From: Escherichia coli
GTDB lineage: Bacteria; Pseudomonadota; Gammaproteobacteria; Enterobacterales; Enterobacteriaceae
DNA length: 7,079 nucleotides
Direction: 5' to 3' (one strand)
Assembly (NCBI RefSeq): GCF_003334305.1
Contig: NZ_QOWS01000048.1
In this document: piece after piece, positions 1-7,079 of the stretch
Layout: the number at the start of each line of letters is the position of its first letter
Position numbering within the stretch: the first letter of the stretch is position 1
Program-made: the position numbers and the translations under genes
The notes under the pieces: generated by a model
What the model saw: only the letters and a program-made list of their open reading frames with translations
What the model was told of the DNA's origin: nothing
Databases searched by the model: none

Positions 1-183
1 TCACGCCTGAAGGGAAAGCTGCACGTTATCAGCAAGCGTTACACTCAGCGCATTGAGCGACATAATCTGAATCTGAGGCAGCACCTGGCACGGCTGGGAC
101 GGAAGTCGCTGTCGTTCTCAAAATCGGTGGAGCTGCATGACAAAGTCATCGGGCATTATCTGAACATAAAACACTATCAATAA
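1..183 (+). CDS. insB: IS1 transposase InsB (InsAB') C-terminal fragment; 5' end outside window
   Basis: Open frame from the window edge to TAA at 181-183; the encoded C-terminus ...[24 protein letters not shown] matches IS1 InsB as I recall it. Confidence 0.85.
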
Positions 184-198
184 GTTGGAGTCATCACC
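176..198. repeat. IS1 right terminal inverted repeat (IRR)
   Basis: atcaataagttggagtcatcacc overlaps the insB stop codon, as in IS1, and is the near-reverse-complement of the IS1 left end GGTGATGCTGCCAACTTACTGAT. Confidence 0.7.
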
Positions 199-981
199 TA
201 CAACTGGGTACAGCATGAACCCTCAGACAGAAAACAAAGTGATGAGCGGCTAAAACTGGAGATTAAGGTGGCACATATCCGCACTCGCGAAACATATGGA
301 ACCCGGCGGCTCCAGACGGAGCTGGCAGAGAATGGCATCATCGTTGGTCGTGACCGACTGGCACGTCTTCGTAAGGAGCTAAGGCTACGCTGTAAGCAGA
401 AACGCAAGTTCAGAGCGACTACGAACTCGAACCACAATCTGCCAGTTGCGCCAAATCTGCTGAACCAGACGTTCGCTCCTACAGCACCAAATCAGGTCTG
501 GGTGGCGGACCTGACGTATGTTGCCACACAGGAGGGATGGTTGTACCTCGCTGGCATCAAAGATGTTTATACGTGCGAAATTGTCGGCTACGCCATGGGA
601 GAGCACATGACAAAAGAGCTGACAGGTAAAGCCCTGTTTATGGCGCTCAGGAGCCAGCGCCCACCTGCCGGGCTAATCCATCACTCTGATCGAGGTTCAC
701 AGTACTGCGCATACGATTACCGGATCATACAGGAGCAGTTTGGTCTGAAAACATCAATGTCGCGTAAAGGTAACTGTTACGACAACGCTCCGATGGAAAG
801 CTTCTGGGGAACGCTGAAAAATGAGAGCCTGAGCCACTATCGTTTTAATAACCGGGATGAAGCCATCTCAGTAATACGGGAATACATTGAGATTTTCTAC
901 AATCGTCAGCGTCGTCACTCTCGTCTGGGGAATATCTCCCCGGCAGCCTTCAGGGAAAAATATCATCAGATGACTGCTTAA
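199..981 (+). CDS. IS3-family transposase OrfB (DDE integrase catalytic domain), 5'-truncated
   Basis: The six-frame ORF 268-981 is open in-frame back to 184, with no start codon of its own. Product has IS3-family OrfB hallmarks: ...NQVWVADLTYV...EGWLYLAGIKDVYTCEIVGYAM..., HHSDRGSQYCA..., SMSRKGNCYDNAPMESFWGTLKNE..., YNRQRRHSRLGNISPAAF. Close to but not identical with IS3, IS150 or IS911 OrfB as I recall them. Confidence 0.85.
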   Translation, partial: YNWVQHEPSDRKQSDERLKLEIKVAHIRTRETYGTRRLQTELAENGIIVGRDRLARLRKELRLRCKQKRKFRATTNSNHNLPVAPNLLNQTFAPTAPNQVWVADLTYVATQEGWLYLAGIKDVYTCEIVGYAMGEHMTKELTGKALFMALRSQRPPAGLIHHSDRGSQYCAYDYRIIQEQFGLKTSMSRKGNCYDNAPMESFWGTLKNESLSHYRFNNRDEAISVIREYIEIFYNRQRRHSRLGNISPAAFREKYHQMTA

Positions 982-1023
982 AAAAGAACAAATGGTAGTG
1001 TCCGCTATTGCCAGTACACCTCA
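199..1023 (+). mobile_element. IS3-family element (possibly IS600-like), 3' portion only; 5' part displaced by the IS1 end at 198/199
   Basis: OrfB-type DDE transposase reading frame 199-981, then a putative right terminal IR whose reverse complement reads TGAGGTGTACTGGCAATAGCGGACACTACC (plus 994-1023, ending ...CA at 1023), typical of IS3-family TG...CA termini. No orfA or left IR is present between the IS1 end and orfB. Confidence 0.75.
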
Positions 1024-1223
1024 GGTATCAAAAAGCGATAGATGCAGCTAATACACGACATAACCAAGAAATAAATCATTAAACGACAACACTTAATACC
1101 ATATTGTGAAGATGTTCAGACATGGCGGAATTCCCCTATTCTTTGTTGGCGCTTACAACAGACTATATTCCGCCATATCTGTCTTTATTGTGTATAAACC
1201 ATCGATACTGATGTTTGATAGTG

Positions 1224-2522
1224 CTAAATAATCATTGGCGCAATCACAAAGCCTAATGCCACTCCAGCAATAATTCCCCCCAACCCAGGCAGCATAAATG
1301 GATGATTCAGCACATATTTGCCTACACGAGTTGTGCCGGTAGTATCAAATTCCATGGCAGCCAGTGATGTTGGATACGTTGGCAGTACAAATACTCCGGT
1401 GACGGCCACATAGGACGCCAGAATTGCCCAGGTGGGCACGTCAAGCGCGACGGCAAGCGGGATAATTAACGGCGTGGTCGCACCTTGCGAGTAGAGCAGC
1501 GCGCAAGTGCCAAAAAGAACCAGCGCCAACAACATCGGATACGCCTGCAAAATATCACCAGCAATATCTTTAATCTCAGTTAAATGCGCATCAATAAAAG
1601 TGGTGCCTAAGGTTACAATGCCGAGAATTACCGCCAGCGAACTCATCCCCGCACGGAATGTGGAGGTGAGAATAATGGCATCGGTCGCCGTCTTACACAG
1701 CATCACCATCAGGCAGGCGGCAGAGAGCATACAGATAATAATGATATCGCGTGTTTCCATCGGTTTACCGATATCAAAACCCGGACGCAGTTGGGGGAAG
1801 GCAGCAAGAATAACAATAGCGACCGTCGCCAGCAGGAACAATCCGACGGAGAGCGTCGCACCTGGCTTGATGCTGCTATTATTCTCGTATTTTTGCACCA
1901 GTCCTTTTTGCAGGCGCTCAAGGTAGACCTCGTCATCCTGCAACTCACATCCCTGTCGGGAAGCAATAAAAGCGGCGACCATCGCGGCAGCAAAAGAGGT
2001 GGGAAGACATACCGACATCACTTGAATAAAACTGACACCGTTTACCTCCATAATAGTGAGCATAGCCGCCATTGCGGCGCTGATCGGCGAACCGGAAATC
2101 GCAACCTGCGAAGCGACAACCGAACCGGCAAGCGTGCGGGAAGGACGGATACCGGACTCTTTCGCCACTTCAGCAATCACCGGCAGCGTGGAAAAAACAA
2201 TAAACCCAGTACCGGCCATAATGGTCATAGACCAGGTGATAATCGGCGCGATTATGTTGATATATTTCGGGTTACGCCGCATAAAATTACCAGCGACGCG
2301 TACCAGATAATCCATTCCGCCTGCGGCCTGTAAGGCTGAGGCCGCCACAACAACGGTCATAATAATCAGGATCACGTCGACTGGCGGCGACCCCATAGGC
2401 AGACCAAATCCCAGAGTCAGAATGGCAAGCCCAAGCCCGCCACATAAACCAATACCGATTCCCCCCTGGCGAATACCAAAAAATATTGCACCAAGTACTA
2501 CGATAATTTCCAGCCAAACCAT
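1224..2522 (-). CDS. Anaerobic C4-dicarboxylate transporter, DcuA/DcuB family (432 aa)
   Basis: The 432-aa product aligns along its whole length with E. coli DcuA as I recall it (N-terminus MVWLEIIVVLGAIFFGIRQGGIGIG... versus DcuA MLVVELIIVLLAIFLGARLGGIGIG...; RRNPKYI, TLPVIAEVAKE, LPTYPT, GTTRVGKYVLNHPF motifs). Strongly hydrophobic throughout. GGAG Shine-Dalgarno 7-8 nt upstream of the ATG at 2522. Confidence 0.9.
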   Translation of the reverse strand: MVWLEIIVVLGAIFFGIRQGGIGIGLCGGLGLAILTLGFGLPMGSPPVDVILIIMTVVVAASALQAAGGMDYLVRVAGNFMRRNPKYINIIAPIITWSMTIMAGTGFIVFSTLPVIAEVAKESGIRPSRTLAGSVVASQVAISGSPISAAMAAMLTIMEVNGVSFIQVMSVCLPTSFAAAMVAAFIASRQGCELQDDEVYLERLQKGLVQKYENNSSIKPGATLSVGLFLLATVAIVILAAFPQLRPGFDIGKPMETRDIIIICMLSAACLMVMLCKTATDAIILTSTFRAGMSSLAVILGIVTLGTTFIDAHLTEIKDIAGDILQAYPMLLALVLFGTCALLYSQGATTPLIIPLAVALDVPTWAILASYVAVTGVFVLPTYPTSLAAMEFDTTGTTRVGKYVLNHPFMLPGLGGIIAGVALGFVIAPMII

Positions 2523-2587
2523 AATGTTCTCCGTTATAAATATAATTCAGTTAAAAGCGAATAACTTTCTGGCTGCGATTTAAATGA

Positions 2588-3307
2588 TTATTGGGTTAAA
2601 AGATAATGTTTACCGACACGATTTTCGTACCATTTTATTCCGGCACGAACGAGTGACGCCGTTGAGTCAATATAGCGGGAAGGCTGCTCTTTAACGGCTT
2701 GCGCCAGAATAACCGGAATTTCTGTACAACCAAGAACAAGGATTTCTGCACCGCGAGAAAATAATATTTCAGCCTGCTCATTCATCAACTTTTGTGCGTG
2801 CGCTATATTGCCAGCTTTCAAGGAATAAATACTTTCCATCACTTTTTTCTGACCGTCGGCATCGGGGCTGACACAGGTAAATCCCAGCGACTCAATTCCT
2901 TTTTGGTATAAACCCATATATAGCGTGGCATTGGTGGCTAACAAGCCAATTCGGGTTTTACCACAGGCGCGAACTTCATTGATCGTAGTTTCTACGATAC
3001 TTAATATATCAATATGACAAGCATCTTTTAATTCTTTGAACCAGTAATGCGCGGTATTACAGGGAATAACAATACATTCTGCCCCGGCATCTTCCAGCTT
3101 ATGCATATAATCACGCATAACGGGTAATGGTGAACGCCCATGATGCATTAATGCATCGGTACGGTCAGGAATATCCGGGATCGAAGAAATAATTAAAGGA
3201 ATATGTTCCTGATCACATTGTGCAGCGGTAAAAGTTACAAATTTATTAAACAGGTCGACGGTAGCTGCCGGCCCCATTCCACCGAGTACACCAATTAAAC
3301 CTTTCAC
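2588..3307 (-). CDS. Asp/Glu racemase-family enzyme, aspartate-racemase-like (239 aa; GTG start)
   Basis: Signature motifs of PLP-independent two-cysteine amino-acid racemases: GVLGGMGP near the N-terminus, IVIPCNTAHYW (first catalytic Cys) and LVLGCTEIPV (second catalytic Cys). Start codon is GTG at 3305-3307 with a GAGG Shine-Dalgarno ~10 nt upstream; an in-frame stop lies 4 codons further upstream. Only 65 bp separate it from the downstream Dcu gene on the same strand, with no terminator seen, so the two are probably co-transcribed. Confidence 0.85.
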   Translation of the reverse strand: MKGLIGVLGGMGPAATVDLFNKFVTFTAAQCDQEHIPLIISSIPDIPDRTDALMHHGRSPLPVMRDYMHKLEDAGAECIVIPCNTAHYWFKELKDACHIDILSIVETTINEVRACGKTRIGLLATNATLYMGLYQKGIESLGFTCVSPDADGQKKVMESIYSLKAGNIAHAQKLMNEQAEILFSRGAEILVLGCTEIPVILAQAVKEQPSRYIDSTASLVRAGIKWYENRVGKHYLLTQ

Positions 3308-3651
3308 AATACCTGCCTCTCAAAACGTTAATGACAATACGCGGTAAATAACTGCTGCTCTCTTTTTTAACAGTCGAAATGGGCGATGAGAAATGCAAGG
3401 TTGTACAAGGCGATGCAAGACACGCATGATGCAGCTATGGAACATTCCGCTTATTCACCATAGTGATGATGTATTCTGGTTATCTGACGGAAAAATTTCG
3501 TTTTTTTGGCGAAATGTGATATCAACGTCAATACCGGAAATGAAGGGGTTATGCACAAAACGAATGATAAAGGCCAGGTTGTGCTAATTGAGAACATTAT
3601 TTTTATTGCCGGGATGTTTTATTATGTCTTTGGATTGAAAATACAGGTGCC
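3308..3651. promoter_or_regulatory. Divergent promoter/operator region between the racemase-Dcu operon and the LysR gene
   Basis: 344-bp non-coding gap between divergent start codons. Contains three 10-bp-phased direct repeats (atgcaagg 3393-3400, gtacaagg 3403-3410, atgcaaga 3413-3420), an overlapping ATGC-N7-GCAT dyad (3413-3427) and a TCAC-N4-GTGA dyad (3455-3466) with LysR-type T-N11-A spacing. Confidence 0.5.
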
Positions 3652-4596
3652 ATGGTAATGAAGAATATCGAGACAAAATGGTTATACGATTTCCTGACAC
3701 TGGAAGCCTGTCGCCATTTTTCTCAGGCGGCAAAAGAGCGTAATCTTTCGCAACCCGCATTCAGCCGACGAATTAAGGCGCTGGAGGCAGCGATCGGCGT
3801 TGTTTTATTCGATCGCACGACCACCCCTTTACAATTAACCGAAGAGGGCAAGCTCTTTCATTCCCAGACTCGCAGCTTATTACAGCAGCTTGAATGCAAT
3901 TTGGGGGAGTTAAACGGCCAGAGTTTACTCGGCGTTCCCAACATTAAAATTGCAGCCGCGCACTCACTATCCCTGAGCGTATTACCCAAACTGGTGCATT
4001 CACTTACCGCCTATGGCGGAGAATTTGTCTATCATGTTGAAGCCATTGATGTTGTCCAGGCCGTAAATACGTTACGCGAAGGCAAGAGTGACTTTATTAT
4101 TTCGTTTCGCGATGAAGATCTTATGCAATCGCCTTTTTGCTGCCTGAAACTGTTTGAATCTGAGTTGTACCCGGTATGTGCCGCCGACGCACAGGGGCAC
4201 CCTGTATTCGATATCACTCAGCCCCAGGTTCCTTTGCTCAACTATACCGCCACATCTTATATGGGCAGGTTGGTCAATCGTCATCTGGCAGAGGTTGGAG
4301 GTATTACCGGGCGCACGATATTTATCTCTTCGATGAGCGAGTTATTAAAGAATATGGCGCTCAACGGATACGGCATTGCCTGGTTACCGATCTGGTCGAT
4401 CGTCGATGAACTACAGACCAAACGTCTGATATGCCTTGATGCTGCTAAATTGACAGTCCCCATTCAGGCTTATATTTACCGAATGAACACCCGACTGAAT
4501 AGAACCGCCGAGAACCTCTGGCGTATTTTACAGGAACATATGCCAGACGATTTAATCCAGCAGATATCAATGGAAGAGCCAGCATGCCGCAATTGA
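3652..4596 (+). CDS. LysR-family transcriptional regulator (LTTR), YjiE/HypT-like; true start more likely the ATG at 3658
   Basis: N-terminal winged-HTH region (...LEACRHFSQAAKERNLSQPAFSRRIKALEAAIGVVLFDR...) followed by a LysR-type substrate-binding domain. The N-terminus resembles what I recall of E. coli YjiE (...NIETKWLYDFLTLE...). An AGGTG Shine-Dalgarno at 3645-3649 sits 8 nt before the ATG at 3658 but only 2 nt before the ATG at 3652. Confidence 0.9.
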   Translation: MVMKNIETKWLYDFLTLEACRHFSQAAKERNLSQPAFSRRIKALEAAIGVVLFDRTTTPLQLTEEGKLFHSQTRSLLQQLECNLGELNGQSLLGVPNIKIAAAHSLSLSVLPKLVHSLTAYGGEFVYHVEAIDVVQAVNTLREGKSDFIISFRDEDLMQSPFCCLKLFESELYPVCAADAQGHPVFDITQPQVPLLNYTATSYMGRLVNRHLAEVGGITGRTIFISSMSELLKNMALNGYGIAWLPIWSIVDELQTKRLICLDAAKLTVPIQAYIYRMNTRLNRTAENLWRILQEHMPDDLIQQISMEEPACRN

Positions 4597-4613
4597 CGAC
4601 GTGCAATAAATAT

Positions 4614-4637
4614 CCTCCGGCATAGCCGGAGGTTTTT
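4614..4637 (+). terminator. GC-rich hairpin plus T5 tract 18 bp downstream of the lysR stop (probably the IS200 right-end hairpin)
   Basis: CCTCCGGC-ATA-GCCGGAGG perfect stem (4614-4632) followed by TTTTT (4633-4637) has the form of an intrinsic terminator for plus-strand transcripts. By my boundary estimate it lies inside the IS200 right end. Confidence 0.6.
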
Positions 4638-4713
4638 CAAATGCGCCTATAAGGCTCTCTTACCAGCCGCGCCCTAACAGGCGCACACGATCTGACATTT
4701 GCATCCAACTTCG

Positions 4714-5173
4714 TTACTTACGGTCCGTAAACGGGCTGCCCGGACAGGGAATCGATAACTGCTCTCCCATTTTATCCTCTTCAAGCTGGTGCTTTATGTA
4801 ATCCTGTATCTTCGCCGTGTTCTTACCCACTGTATCGACGTAGTCCCCCCTGCACCAGAACTCCCTGTTCCTGTATTTGAATTTCAAATCACCAAACTGC
4901 TCGTAAAGCATCAGACTGCTTTTCCCTTTCAGATATCCCATAAACCCGGATACGCTCATTTTGGGCGGGATCTCCACAAGCATATGGATATGATCTGCAC
5001 AGCATTCAGCTTCCAGAATCCGTACGCTTTTCCACTCACACAGCTTTCTCAAAATACTGCCTGTTGCTCTACGCTTCTCTCTGTAGAACACCTGTCTTCG
5101 GTATTTTGGCGCAAAAAACTATGTGATATTTACAGTTCCATCGGGTGTGCGCTAAGCTCTTTTCGTTCCCCAT
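4714..5173 (-). pseudogene. tnpA: IS200 transposase tnpA (Y1/HuH), apparently frameshifted
   Basis: ATG at 5173 (minus) opens MGNEKSLAHTRWNCKYHIVF, then the frame changes at a T6 run (plus A6 at 5113-5118). The remainder ...FAPKYRRQVFYREKRRATGSILRKLCEWKSVRILEAECCADHIHMLVEIPPKMS...FWCRGDYVDTVGKNTAKIQDYIKHQLEEDKMGEQLSIPCPGSPFTDRK* is in another frame (six-frame ORF 4714-5091). The intact IS200 TnpA as I recall it reads through ...KYHIVFAPKYRRQ..., so this copy appears to carry one extra T. Confidence 0.75.
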
Positions 5174-5179
5174 TGGGAC

Positions 5180-5249
5180 CCCCTTTTGATTTCTTGTTTG
5201 ACACTTGCAGTTGCCAGACCGCAAGGTGTTTTAACAAATCAAAAGGGGT
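5180..5249 (-). promoter_or_regulatory. IS200 5'UTR stem-loop that sequesters the tnpA ribosome-binding site
   Basis: Perfect 13-bp inverted repeat: CCCCUUUUGAUUU pairs with AAAUCAAAAGGGG across a ~44-nt loop on the minus-strand transcript. The 3' arm contains the AAGGGGG Shine-Dalgarno just upstream of the AUG at 5173. Matches the described IS200 nt 69-138 structure. Confidence 0.7.
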
Positions 5250-5283
5250 TTTAATAACTGGCTCAAAGCTGAAAGCTTTCCGG

Positions 5284-5306
5284 AACCCCCAGCCTAGCTG
5301 GGAGTT
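5284..5306 (-). promoter_or_regulatory. IS200 left-end hairpin (described as blocking read-in transcription)
   Basis: Minus-strand AACTCCCAGC-TAG-GCTGGGGGTT forms a 10-bp stem (one G.U pair) with a 3-nt loop, 23 nt in total, at the position expected for the IS200 nt 12-34 hairpin. Confidence 0.55.
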
Positions 5307-5316
5307 TTCTGTGCAC

Positions 5317-5344
5317 AAAAAAACCCTGTAAAAAACTTACAGGG
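5317..5344 (-). terminator. Perfect palindrome plus T7 tract (minus-strand intrinsic terminator) abutting the IS200 left end
   Basis: Minus strand reads CCCTGTAA-GTTTT-TTACAGGG followed by TTTTTTT (plus 5324-5344 stem-loop, plus 5317-5323 A7): an 8-bp perfect stem with a U-tract. Confidence 0.55.
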
Positions 5345-5942
5345 GTATAAGGCTTAGCCTAACTTGCGTCTGTTGCATGGTGCCGGGTGCCTCCCGGTGA
5401 ATTCAGTCGGTGTCACTGAACCCGCGTAGGCTTCGCTCATAACATAATAAATGCTATGTACACCAGTCGCCCCACCGCACAGGGGGATTCACCACACGGC
5501 GCACTTTTTAACAAATATCCCTCCGGCCAGACAATAATAAACATAATGAATTGTGATCTTCTTAACAGTTTTAAAGTGTTACAGATAACATGCCAAGTAA
5601 TTGCTTGTTTTTTCATCAATAGGAAGACCACACCAACAACCCCAGCTATCAGCCAGAACCGACATTATCCGGCTGATAAAATCTACCATCACTCCAACAC
5701 CAATCACCGCCTGTGCCAGATCGCGTTTCTCAAACTTTTTAATCTCTGTTGCCACTCTGCGGGTTTTCTTTTTGAATTTTGAAAATACCAAATATCGTGA
5801 CGTTTCTTTGGGGGATGAGCTATCAAGCGGGAACGATCTGCCTACAGAGAAAGTCAGCCAGACCACTCTGCAAATTATCCCCGAAAGGCTCTGTGGCTGA
5901 TATGCGCCGGGCATGGCGCAATGGGCCAGTGGCAGTGTGTGA

Positions 5943-6015
5943 TGGTGGCCCTTACTGGATTTGAACCAGCGACCAAGCGATTATGAGTCCTCTTACCACT
6001 GAGCTAAAGGGTTGG
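5943..6015 (-). tRNA. Degenerate tRNA(CAU)-like sequence resembling tRNA-Ile2 (ileX/ileY-like); probable pseudogene or attachment-site relic
   Basis: Minus strand reads AACCCTTTAGCTCAGTGGTAAGAGGACTCATAATCGCTTGGTCGCTGGTTCAAATCCAGTAAGGGCCACCA. The T-arm, variable loop, CTCATAA anticodon loop (CAT) and 3' acceptor-CCA are recognisable and resemble E. coli tRNA-Ile2 as I recall it. However ~5 nt are missing at the D-stem/anticodon-stem junction, and the first two acceptor-stem positions (AA instead of GG) cannot pair with the 3' strand. Confidence 0.55.
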
Positions 6016-6279
6016 AGAACGCAATATCACCTGTCTTATATGATTACACCCAGAATTTCCCGGACTGTCTTGTCAAAACATTCAGTCTCCAATTCCCACC
6101 AATAGCAAGACGGTCACTATGACAGCATCTCCGGAATGAGCTCAGGGCACGGGGGTTTACCGAGGTTACTTTTCCAACGAAGTTTCTCAAACGCAGGCGT
6201 GACAGATAACATTCAAACTTAGGATCTCAGTTGCTATCTTTTCCCATGTCTTACGGATTAATGTCATCGGTTGCATACA

Positions 6280-6657
6280 AATCGCTACAAGCTGCATCAA
6301 GGCACATGCTTCATATGTACAGTACACCAAGATGGATAGGTGTTTCACCTAATCCTAGCTCATTTCAGGCAGGCTCAACAGGCTGCAGCCCGCATGTTTA
6401 AGGGCGCAGGTTATCAGCAGGTTATAAGCTGACCGGATACATTCCGGCAAAGAAAAACCTTGCAGCGATGAAAGCCGTTTCGGTAATGCAATGACGATAA
6501 AGCTGTCCTGTATATATGTGCTTCGCCTCAAACGCTTGCCGTTTTGGTATTGTGCACATGCCGTCTGAACGATGTGGAGCCAGAAAAATGGATGCGTTAT
6601 GTCATTGAGCATATCTAGGACTGGCCGGCAAACCGGGTACACGATCTGTTGCTCTAA
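6280..6657 (+). pseudogene. IS66-family transposase (TnpC) C-terminal remnant, degraded
   Basis: Frame-1 translation 6487-6657 gives ...AVLVLCTCRLNDVEPEKWMRYVIEHI*DWPANRVHDLLL*, which resembles the conserved IS66 TnpC C-terminus (...LIGTCKLNDVDPE.YLRHVL..IADWPVNRVSELLPW) as I recall it, but with an in-frame TAG at 6616-6618. Upstream similarity (e.g. CIKAHA at ~6290-6307, where CWAHARRK would be expected) is weak and needs frame changes. Possible element terminus GCGCTTAC at 6756-6763 or 6704-6711 (reverse complement GTAAGCG...). Confidence 0.45.
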
Positions 6658-6788
6658 ATAGTTGAGCTGGCCTCTCAGTAAATATCAATACGGTTTTGGT
6701 GAGCCGCTTACCACTGAAGCATCACTTCGGCAGGTAGATTTCTGCAGGCAGAATGGCGCTTACCTTAGCGATAAGCGCGTAAATGTGG

Positions 6789-7079
6789 TTATTCAATACC
6801 TGTGGTGACTGTAAAAGTGCGCGTTTGCTGCGGTGCAACCTGAATCAGCGTGCCATTACGTTGCGCGGCAAGATACCCCTCAGGTCGACAGGTTGCTGGT
6901 AATGCAAAGGCGGCTACCTGTTGCTCGCCGTTATAAAGGATCCAGCGTGTCACATAATTTAGTTCAGCACTGGAGAAACGAGTAACAAACGTAGTGCCAT
7001 CGGGAGCGATCATGCGAAACTCTGGCTGATCTGTGTAAGCGTCCAGTTTGTCTGCAAAGAAGACTATTTCTGGATCATA
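6789..7079 (-). CDS. 3' end of a protein-coding gene of unknown function (C-terminal 96 aa; continues beyond the window)
   Basis: Minus-strand frame is open from the window edge at 7079 to TAA at 6789-6791: YDPEIVFFADKLDAYTDQPEFRMIAPDGTTFVTRFSSAELNYVTRWILYNGEQQVAAFALPATCRPEGYLAAQRNGTLIQVAPQQTRTFTVTTGIE*. The six-frame ORF 6789-7013 is its internal-ATG-limited part. I recognise no family. Confidence 0.5.
   Translation of the reverse strand, partial: YDPEIVFFADKLDAYTDQPEFRMIAPDGTTFVTRFSSAELNYVTRWILYNGEQQVAAFALPATCRPEGYLAAQRNGTLIQVAPQQTRTFTVTTGIE

Follow-up and report, generated by a model that had tools for sequence, protein, structure and literature searches.

The deoQKPX locus is a gene cluster for the utilization of 2-deoxy-D-ribose that the Escherichia coli strains Nissle 1917 and CFT073 carry and that K-12 lacks (PMC7924626). 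It is a published locus, for which Christensen et al. 2003 (J Bacteriol 185:6042) is given as the reference in passages of PMC7924626 and PMC10926698. In E. coli, the deoK operon is found on pheV-type islands or on pathogenicity islands such as that of strain AL862; it is thought to be derived from Salmonella and aids gut colonization (PMC5382810, PMC7545054, PMC6455142). On islands near pheV, the vpe and deoK operons have been described side by side (PMC6455142, PMC5382810). The known route of deoxyribose breakdown consists of deoK plus deoC (PMC6365646).

Salmonella enterica DeoX (UniProt A0A655C4I1, entered as 'DeoX') is, like the E. coli protein, 337 aa long, and in both organisms the genes follow the order deoK-deoP-deoX with a divergent deoQ. 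The Salmonella cluster is chromosomal and lies between ilvN and uhpA, whereas that of E. coli resides on islands, accompanied by an ilvN remnant and without a uhpA remnant. In Salmonella, Christensen and colleagues are said to have found that deoX is required for optimal growth on deoxyribose. We know of no assay of DeoX, and the searchable literature yielded no DeoX enzymology and no paper joining deoX, deoxyribose and mutarotase.

Galactose mutarotase, or GalM (EC 5.1.3.3; E. coli b0756, L. lactis 1L7J), resembles DeoX in its beta-sandwich fold (Foldseek E values of 5e-9 to 1e-7), and the genes for both proteins end a sugar-kinase operon, galETKM and deoKPX, respectively. The two differ in that GalM acts on a hexose, whereas the presumed substrate of DeoX is a 2-deoxypentose. 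RbsD (D-ribose pyranase) and FucU (fucose mutarotase) convert the ring or anomer form of a free sugar for the next enzyme, RbsD performing this ring-form conversion on ribose ahead of RbsK. Like DeoX in its proposed role, both are encoded by accessory genes in transporter-plus-kinase operons, but they are functional analogues only, being small proteins of an unrelated fold, and Pfam and NCBIfam scans of DeoX gave no match to either.

A deoX fragment at the right edge of the window

The window analyzed here is a stretch of E. coli DNA of 7,079 nucleotides, in the right-hand part of which we assigned the following features.

6540..6711, plus strand: IS66-family remnant, recognized by translation, with a TnpC C-terminal tail (...RLNDVEPEKWMRYVIEHI, stop, DWPANRVHDLLL, stop) and the element end CGCTTAC at 6705-6711
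6712..6784, no strand: lineage-specific 73-nt spacer from the IS66-family end to the deo block
6785 and 6794, no strand: edge of the conserved deo block, taken as the start of homology in most deoX-carrying E. coli (6785, 4 nt past the stop) and in the Salmonella deo locus (6794)
6789..7079, minus strand: 3' end of deoX, codons 242-337 plus TAA, from translation, identity to annotated genes, Pfam, third-position bias and UniProt names
6897..6908, minus strand: codons L301-P302-A303-T304, L301 apparently occupying the place of the mutarotase catalytic Glu in a profile alignment

Translation bore out the original prediction of a minus-strand frame open for 96 codons to the right edge. Positions 6789-7079 contain 96 sense codons, YDPEIVFFADKLDAYTDQPEF...LIQVAPQQTRTFTVTTGIE (YDPEIVFF...TFTVTTGIE), followed by a TAA stop that is the complement of 6789-6791, and the frame runs off the window. 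Since several spurious ORFs of 100-180 codons overlap real genes within the same 7-kb window, according to a mechanical ORF list, ORF length alone is no proof of a gene. The fragment is identical to residues 242-337 of the 337-aa protein WP_000107484.1 found in E. coli DA33137, to which window positions 367-7079 align without gaps at 99.84% identity. Codon n of deoX has the coordinates 7079-3(n-242)-2 to 7079-3(n-242), and the first 241 codons fall past the right edge. Megablast of window positions 6650-7079 against complete E. coli genomes recovered copies 100% identical to the fragment DNA, annotated as 'aldose 1-epimerase family protein' or 'DUF4432 domain-containing protein', and in UniProt, relatives at 81-98% identity are entered as 'DeoX', 'Deoxyribose mutarotase' or 'Deoxyribose specific mutarotase'. 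The exact 337-aa DeoX protein is encoded on at least 1000 public contigs, and homologues at E<=1e-3 numbered 1088.

A chance ORF had been expected to reveal itself by stops a short distance upstream and by the absence of any homologue. Instead, the frame continues in the matching genomes to a 337-codon gene with a ribosome-binding site; in DA33137, deoX starts 11 nt past the stop of the upstream gene, with the RBS GGAGAA in front. As only 96 of the 337 codons lie in the window, we infer from these identical genomes that deoX is probably intact in the present strain as well.

Comparison with the Salmonella orthologue revealed 68 nucleotide differences in the fragment, 54 of them at codon position 3, and the codon changes were 49 synonymous and 11 non-synonymous; accordingly, 85 of the 96 residues are the same as in Salmonella DeoX (11 substitutions). 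This third-position bias points to purifying selection in exactly the deoX frame. The frame could still be read as a chance ORF or as a decayed pseudogene remnant beside IS debris, because it adjoins IS66, IS200 and tRNA remnants, because the window holds no start codon upstream of the fragment save an internal ATG (giving a 74-aa ORF) and because several pseudogenes border the deo cluster in DA33137. We nevertheless regard such a reading as extremely improbable, given that the frame belongs to an intact 337-codon gene in 100%-identical genomes, that the exact protein recurs on so many contigs, that the substitutions relative to Salmonella are so strongly biased to third positions and that key residues are invariant in 55 homologues down to ~25% identity. 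Homology and codon-position evidence led us to reject both the chance-ORF and the pseudogene reading for the fragment itself, and the identical annotated genes, the 1088 homologues and the purifying selection uphold the earlier view of the frame as the C-terminal fragment of a real protein.

Operon context and comparison with Salmonella

deoX is the last gene of its operon and is transcribed toward the IS66 remnant. In DA33137, it is preceded on the same strand by the permease gene (deoP) and, farther upstream, the kinase gene (deoK), and the cluster encodes the following.

DeoP, upstream of deoX, same strand: 438-aa FucP-like MFS permease (TIGR00885, 322 bits)
DeoK, upstream of the DeoP gene: 306-aa ribokinase-type PfkB kinase (TIGR02152, 368 bits)
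DeoQ, divergent to deoK: 260-aa DeoR-family regulator
ilvN fragment, beyond deoQ: frameshifted (pseudogene)

The order kinase-permease-deoX with a divergent DeoR-family gene was observed in DA33137, ATCC 25922, Salmonella and a Pasteurellaceae genome, the window itself showing the deoX tail only. The Salmonella locus reads ilvB-ilvN-deoQ<->PfkB-MFS-DUF4432-uhpA-uhpB-uhpC-uhpT, and its DNA is 77-80% identical to that of E. coli over a region that covers deoX to deoK, deoQ and the 3' part of ilvN; within it, window positions 6794-7079 match positions 7009-6724 of the Salmonella locus at 76.9% DNA identity. The E. coli and Salmonella proteins are 95.8% identical for DeoK, 95.7% for DeoP, 83.7% for DeoX (337/337 aa) and 83.9% for DeoQ, and these values of ~84% versus ~96% place DeoX and DeoQ under clearly weaker constraint than DeoK and DeoP. 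No uhpA remnant was found downstream of deoX in the window, where tblastn of UhpA gave noise only and DNA homology to Salmonella ends at the deoX stop codon, 5 nt to its inner side. Unlike Salmonella, E. coli has lineage-specific DNA right after the deoX stop, here the IS66 tail.

In the Pasteurellaceae genome, the homologue is 60% identical and the genes are arranged as deoR-deoC<->PfkB-MFS-DUF4432, and a skin-metagenome contig contains MFS-DUF4432-PfkB. Homologues at ~30% identity adjoin PfkB, LacI and ABC sugar genes, and a homologue at ~34% identity showed no sugar-gene context at its locus.

Boundary and island status of the deo block

Among complete E. coli genomes, 1635 of 5426 (~30%) carry deoX. 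This frequency, together with the reported absence of the cluster from K-12 (PMC7924626), identifies the deo block as accessory island DNA, not core, and of the two kinds of flanking DNA that the original prediction had allowed for, only island DNA stands. The further suggestion that the fragment is the first gene of a flanking block was right in that a new block does start here: the window's own left flank is common to 281 genomes only, and in ~1350 others similarity starts at 6785. It was wrong as to gene order, since deoX is last in its operon. deoQKPX is a mobile block common to E. coli islands and Salmonella. In ATCC 25922, the DNA beyond deoX contains a transposase fragment and then a LacI-regulated PTS operon, which matches the published adjoining vpe and deoK operons (PMC6455142, PMC5382810).

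As had been noted, the fragment lies just beyond an IS66 remnant. The TnpC tail of this remnant is interrupted by an in-frame stop, and at 90% the remnant also matches a 'transposase domain-containing protein' of a plasmid, the match ending at window position 6711 with the element end. The spacer that follows contains a 7-bp inverted repeat, GCGCTTA (6756-6762) and TAAGCGC (6772-6778), without a T-run behind it, and a scan of 6500-7079 for an intrinsic terminator downstream of deoX detected none. A second GCGCTTAC-like motif lies inside this inverted repeat and could represent a second, nested IS66-type end.

The tRNA relic reported near the fragment was likewise recovered, as a decayed tRNA-like sequence at 5946-6013 on the minus strand that scored 30.7 bits against the Rfam tRNA model (gathering score, 29) and was not called by ARAGORN. 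It has a CAT anticodon loop and the 3' end ...GGTTCAAATCCAG...GGGCCACCA. We take it to resemble ileX/ileY (tRNA-Ile2) with a damaged anticodon stem, and possibly it once served as an island attachment site.

Farther left, positions 4714-5527 on the minus strand hold a frameshifted IS200 tnpA, so annotated in DA33137, together with two strong Rfam hits just upstream of it, STnc490 (5183-5306, 143 bits) and STnc100 (5313-5527, 136 bits), which are IS200-associated RNA elements. Between the IS elements, positions 1224-4596 hold a three-gene set.

1224-2522, minus strand: anaerobic C4-dicarboxylate transporter
2588-3307, minus strand: Asp/Glu racemase family protein
3652-4596, plus strand: LysR regulator annotated HypT

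An 'AspR-DcuA' pair is listed for the Shigella SRL island in a review table (PMC7545054). The alignment to the DA33137 locus (99.84% identity) leaves out window positions 1-366; since the IS600 (IS3-family) transposase gene is truncated in DA33137, the IS600 copy of the window strain is apparently longer.

Family and predicted fold of DeoX

The protein had been described as unrecognized and without a family; it is DeoX, a member of DUF4432 (PF14486) with a predicted galactose-mutarotase-like fold. Pfam matched the fragment alone to DUF4432 at 1.2e-5 over model positions 227-303 of 304 (the last 77 positions), and it matched full-length DeoX in two pieces, residues 34-187 (2.4e-6) and 214-335 (1.9e-7), which together cover model positions 2-303 of 304. 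Because the Pfam match is weak, we consider DeoX a divergent member of DUF4432; PF14486 was present in 120 of 120 homologues among the matches listed. The Pfam scan of DeoX returned DUF4432 only, with no Aldose_epim (PF01263) match, and NCBIfam assigned no family to the fragment or to the full protein.

The AF2 model of DeoX, built on a 46-sequence alignment, is mostly beta (mean pLDDT, 84.5; pTM, 0.86). In a Foldseek search of the PDB, its best match was 3TY1, the putative aldose 1-epimerase KPN_04629 (E 3.8e-15, TMq 0.79), followed at E 5e-9 to 4e-7 by the galactose mutarotases of B. subtilis, yeast, L. lactis and human and by E. coli YphB; 3TY1, 3MWX, 3NRE, 1Z45, 4BZE and 1NSZ were each matched with a probability of 1.00. 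The model gives DeoX, a cytoplasmic protein of the DUF4432 branch, a beta-sandwich fold like that of galactose mutarotase.

Among 1.84 billion cluster representatives, searched exhaustively, 479 relatives were found at E<=1e-3, and the family alignment, here called A2, contains 55 sequences with members down to ~25% identity. The A2 profile reached 3TY1 at E 4.4e-18, the only PDB sequence that it reached, and phmmer of full-length DeoX and a profile of close orthologues gave nothing meaningful against PDB sequences. When the DeoX family was compared by hhalign, locally or globally, with E. coli GalM or with a 5-sequence GalM alignment, no significant alignment resulted. The two proteins thus have no detectable sequence-profile relationship, and the link between DeoX and GalM holds at the level of fold only.

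3TY1, which is a Klebsiella pneumoniae DUF4432 protein, shares with DeoX the LHG and HxNF histidines, the D/E of ..D(P)E.., W287 and the P-x-T motif. Identity between the two is only 14%, the residue that precedes the invariant Pro is Glu in 3TY1 and Leu in DeoX, and 3TY1 does not have the H93, H108, E113 and R286 of the DeoX clade, which are R, Q, K and L, respectively, in 3TY1. Its 'aldose 1-epimerase' role is putative, as is that of DeoX.

A DeoX-like domain (46% identity, TMq 0.91) was also detected in a 1266-aa protein of Tuber aestivum (AFDB A0A292Q6T5) annotated as deoxyribose-phosphate aldolase. Either deoxyribose-catabolism domains have been fused here in a eukaryote, or the sequence stems from bacterial contamination or faulty assembly.

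The putative active site

H93, H111, G112, N170, H183 and P302 are invariant in A2, and D106, H108, E113, Y180, N185, E245, R286, W287 and T304 are nearly so. H111 (in LHGE) and H183 (in CHMNY), invariant in 55/55 sequences, align to the LHG and HxNF histidines of 3TY1, and a low-confidence hhalign alignment places them opposite H104 (QLHGG) and H175 (TNHVYFN) of E. coli GalM. The active-site histidines of mutarotases, H104/H175 in E. coli GalM and H96/H170 in L. lactis, therefore have apparent counterparts in H111/H183 of DeoX.

The catalytic Glu of mutarotases is embedded in a hydrophobic-E-(S/T/P/C) motif, which reads LALESE in E. coli, CLETQ in human, AIEPQ in C. elegans and TFECQ in L. 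lactis. At this position, 3TY1 has G-I-E-P-G-T and DeoX has A-L-P-A-T, with Pro and Thr aligned, and the place of the GalM catalytic Glu309/Glu304 appears to be taken in DeoX by Leu. This L301 ends strand 295-301 of the AF2 model. Directly before the invariant P302, 46 of the 55 family sequences have L, 4 have M and 2 have E, and two distant members keep V-E-P-A-T-S at the Glu position. The window fragment includes the codons for L301-T304, D243, E245, R286, W287 and E308.

With moderate confidence, then, DeoX appears to keep both mutarotase histidines without the canonical glutamate. Should the alignment be correct, DeoX and most of its DUF4432 clade would have exchanged the catalytic Glu for Leu and fixed a new polar set, H93, H108, E113 and R286. 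As the active site appears to be without the canonical mutarotase glutamate, calling the protein a 'deoxyribose mutarotase', as databases do, amounts to a guess from context.

Proposed role of DeoX in deoxyribose utilization

In the deoxyribose pathway, DeoP (a FucP-like MFS symporter) brings deoxyribose into the cell, DeoK (a PfkB/ribokinase-type kinase) adds a phosphate at C5, and the core enzyme DeoC splits deoxyribose-5-phosphate into glyceraldehyde-3-P and acetaldehyde, with DeoQ (DeoR family) acting as repressor of the deo operon. DeoX would speed the ring opening and closing of free deoxyribose and so turn the dominant pyranose or the wrong anomer into the furanose, whose 5-OH would be open to phosphorylation by DeoK. 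Free 2-deoxyribose in water is mostly pyranose, and a 5-kinase needs the furanose or the open form. These properties, together with the precedent of RbsD, make ring opening and closing to feed DeoK the best-supported mechanism, and by analogy DeoX likely converts ring or anomer forms of deoxyribose into the form that DeoK phosphorylates. A ring-form converter would also explain why deoX is reportedly needed for optimal, rather than for any, growth on deoxyribose. We are highly confident that the right-edge frame is the 3' end of deoX, the last gene of deoK-deoP-deoX in deoQKPX, and that its product is to be predicted as a deoxyribose ring-form converter.

A less likely, though serious, alternative is that DeoX has the mutarotase fold without being a canonical mutarotase, and that it uses another base (E113, H93 or H108), catalyzes another step or serves as a sugar-binding accessory. 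What speaks for this is L301 at the x-E-P position of 3TY1, two distant members still having V-E-P-A-T-S, together with H93, H108, E113, R286, W59 and Y180, which are (nearly) invariant in the clade and correspond to R, Q, K, L, L and I in 3TY1; the low conservation of DeoX across E. coli and Salmonella (84% identity, with DeoK and DeoP at 96%) and the missing Aldose_epim match point the same way. On the other hand, both mutarotase-site histidines are invariant, the tight linkage to sugar-kinase and permease genes, kept even in distant taxa, fits a converter of sugar forms, and the equivalence of Glu and Leu comes from a profile alignment and motif comparison. We rate as doubtful the idea that DeoX, if the alignment holds, might not be a 'deoxyribose mutarotase' but a deoxypentose ring-form converter of distinct mechanism with a relocated base, or else a non-catalytic partner of DeoK or DeoP, and we favor its role in supplying DeoK with the phosphorylatable form of deoxyribose.

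deoX was already known and is annotated in thousands of genomes, and the fragment itself brings nothing new. The analysis settles the right edge of the window, where IS and tRNA debris gives way to the deoQKPX deoxyribose-utilization module. This module, a known determinant of fitness and colonization in pathogenic E. coli and in some commensals, is borne on islands and thought to derive from Salmonella.
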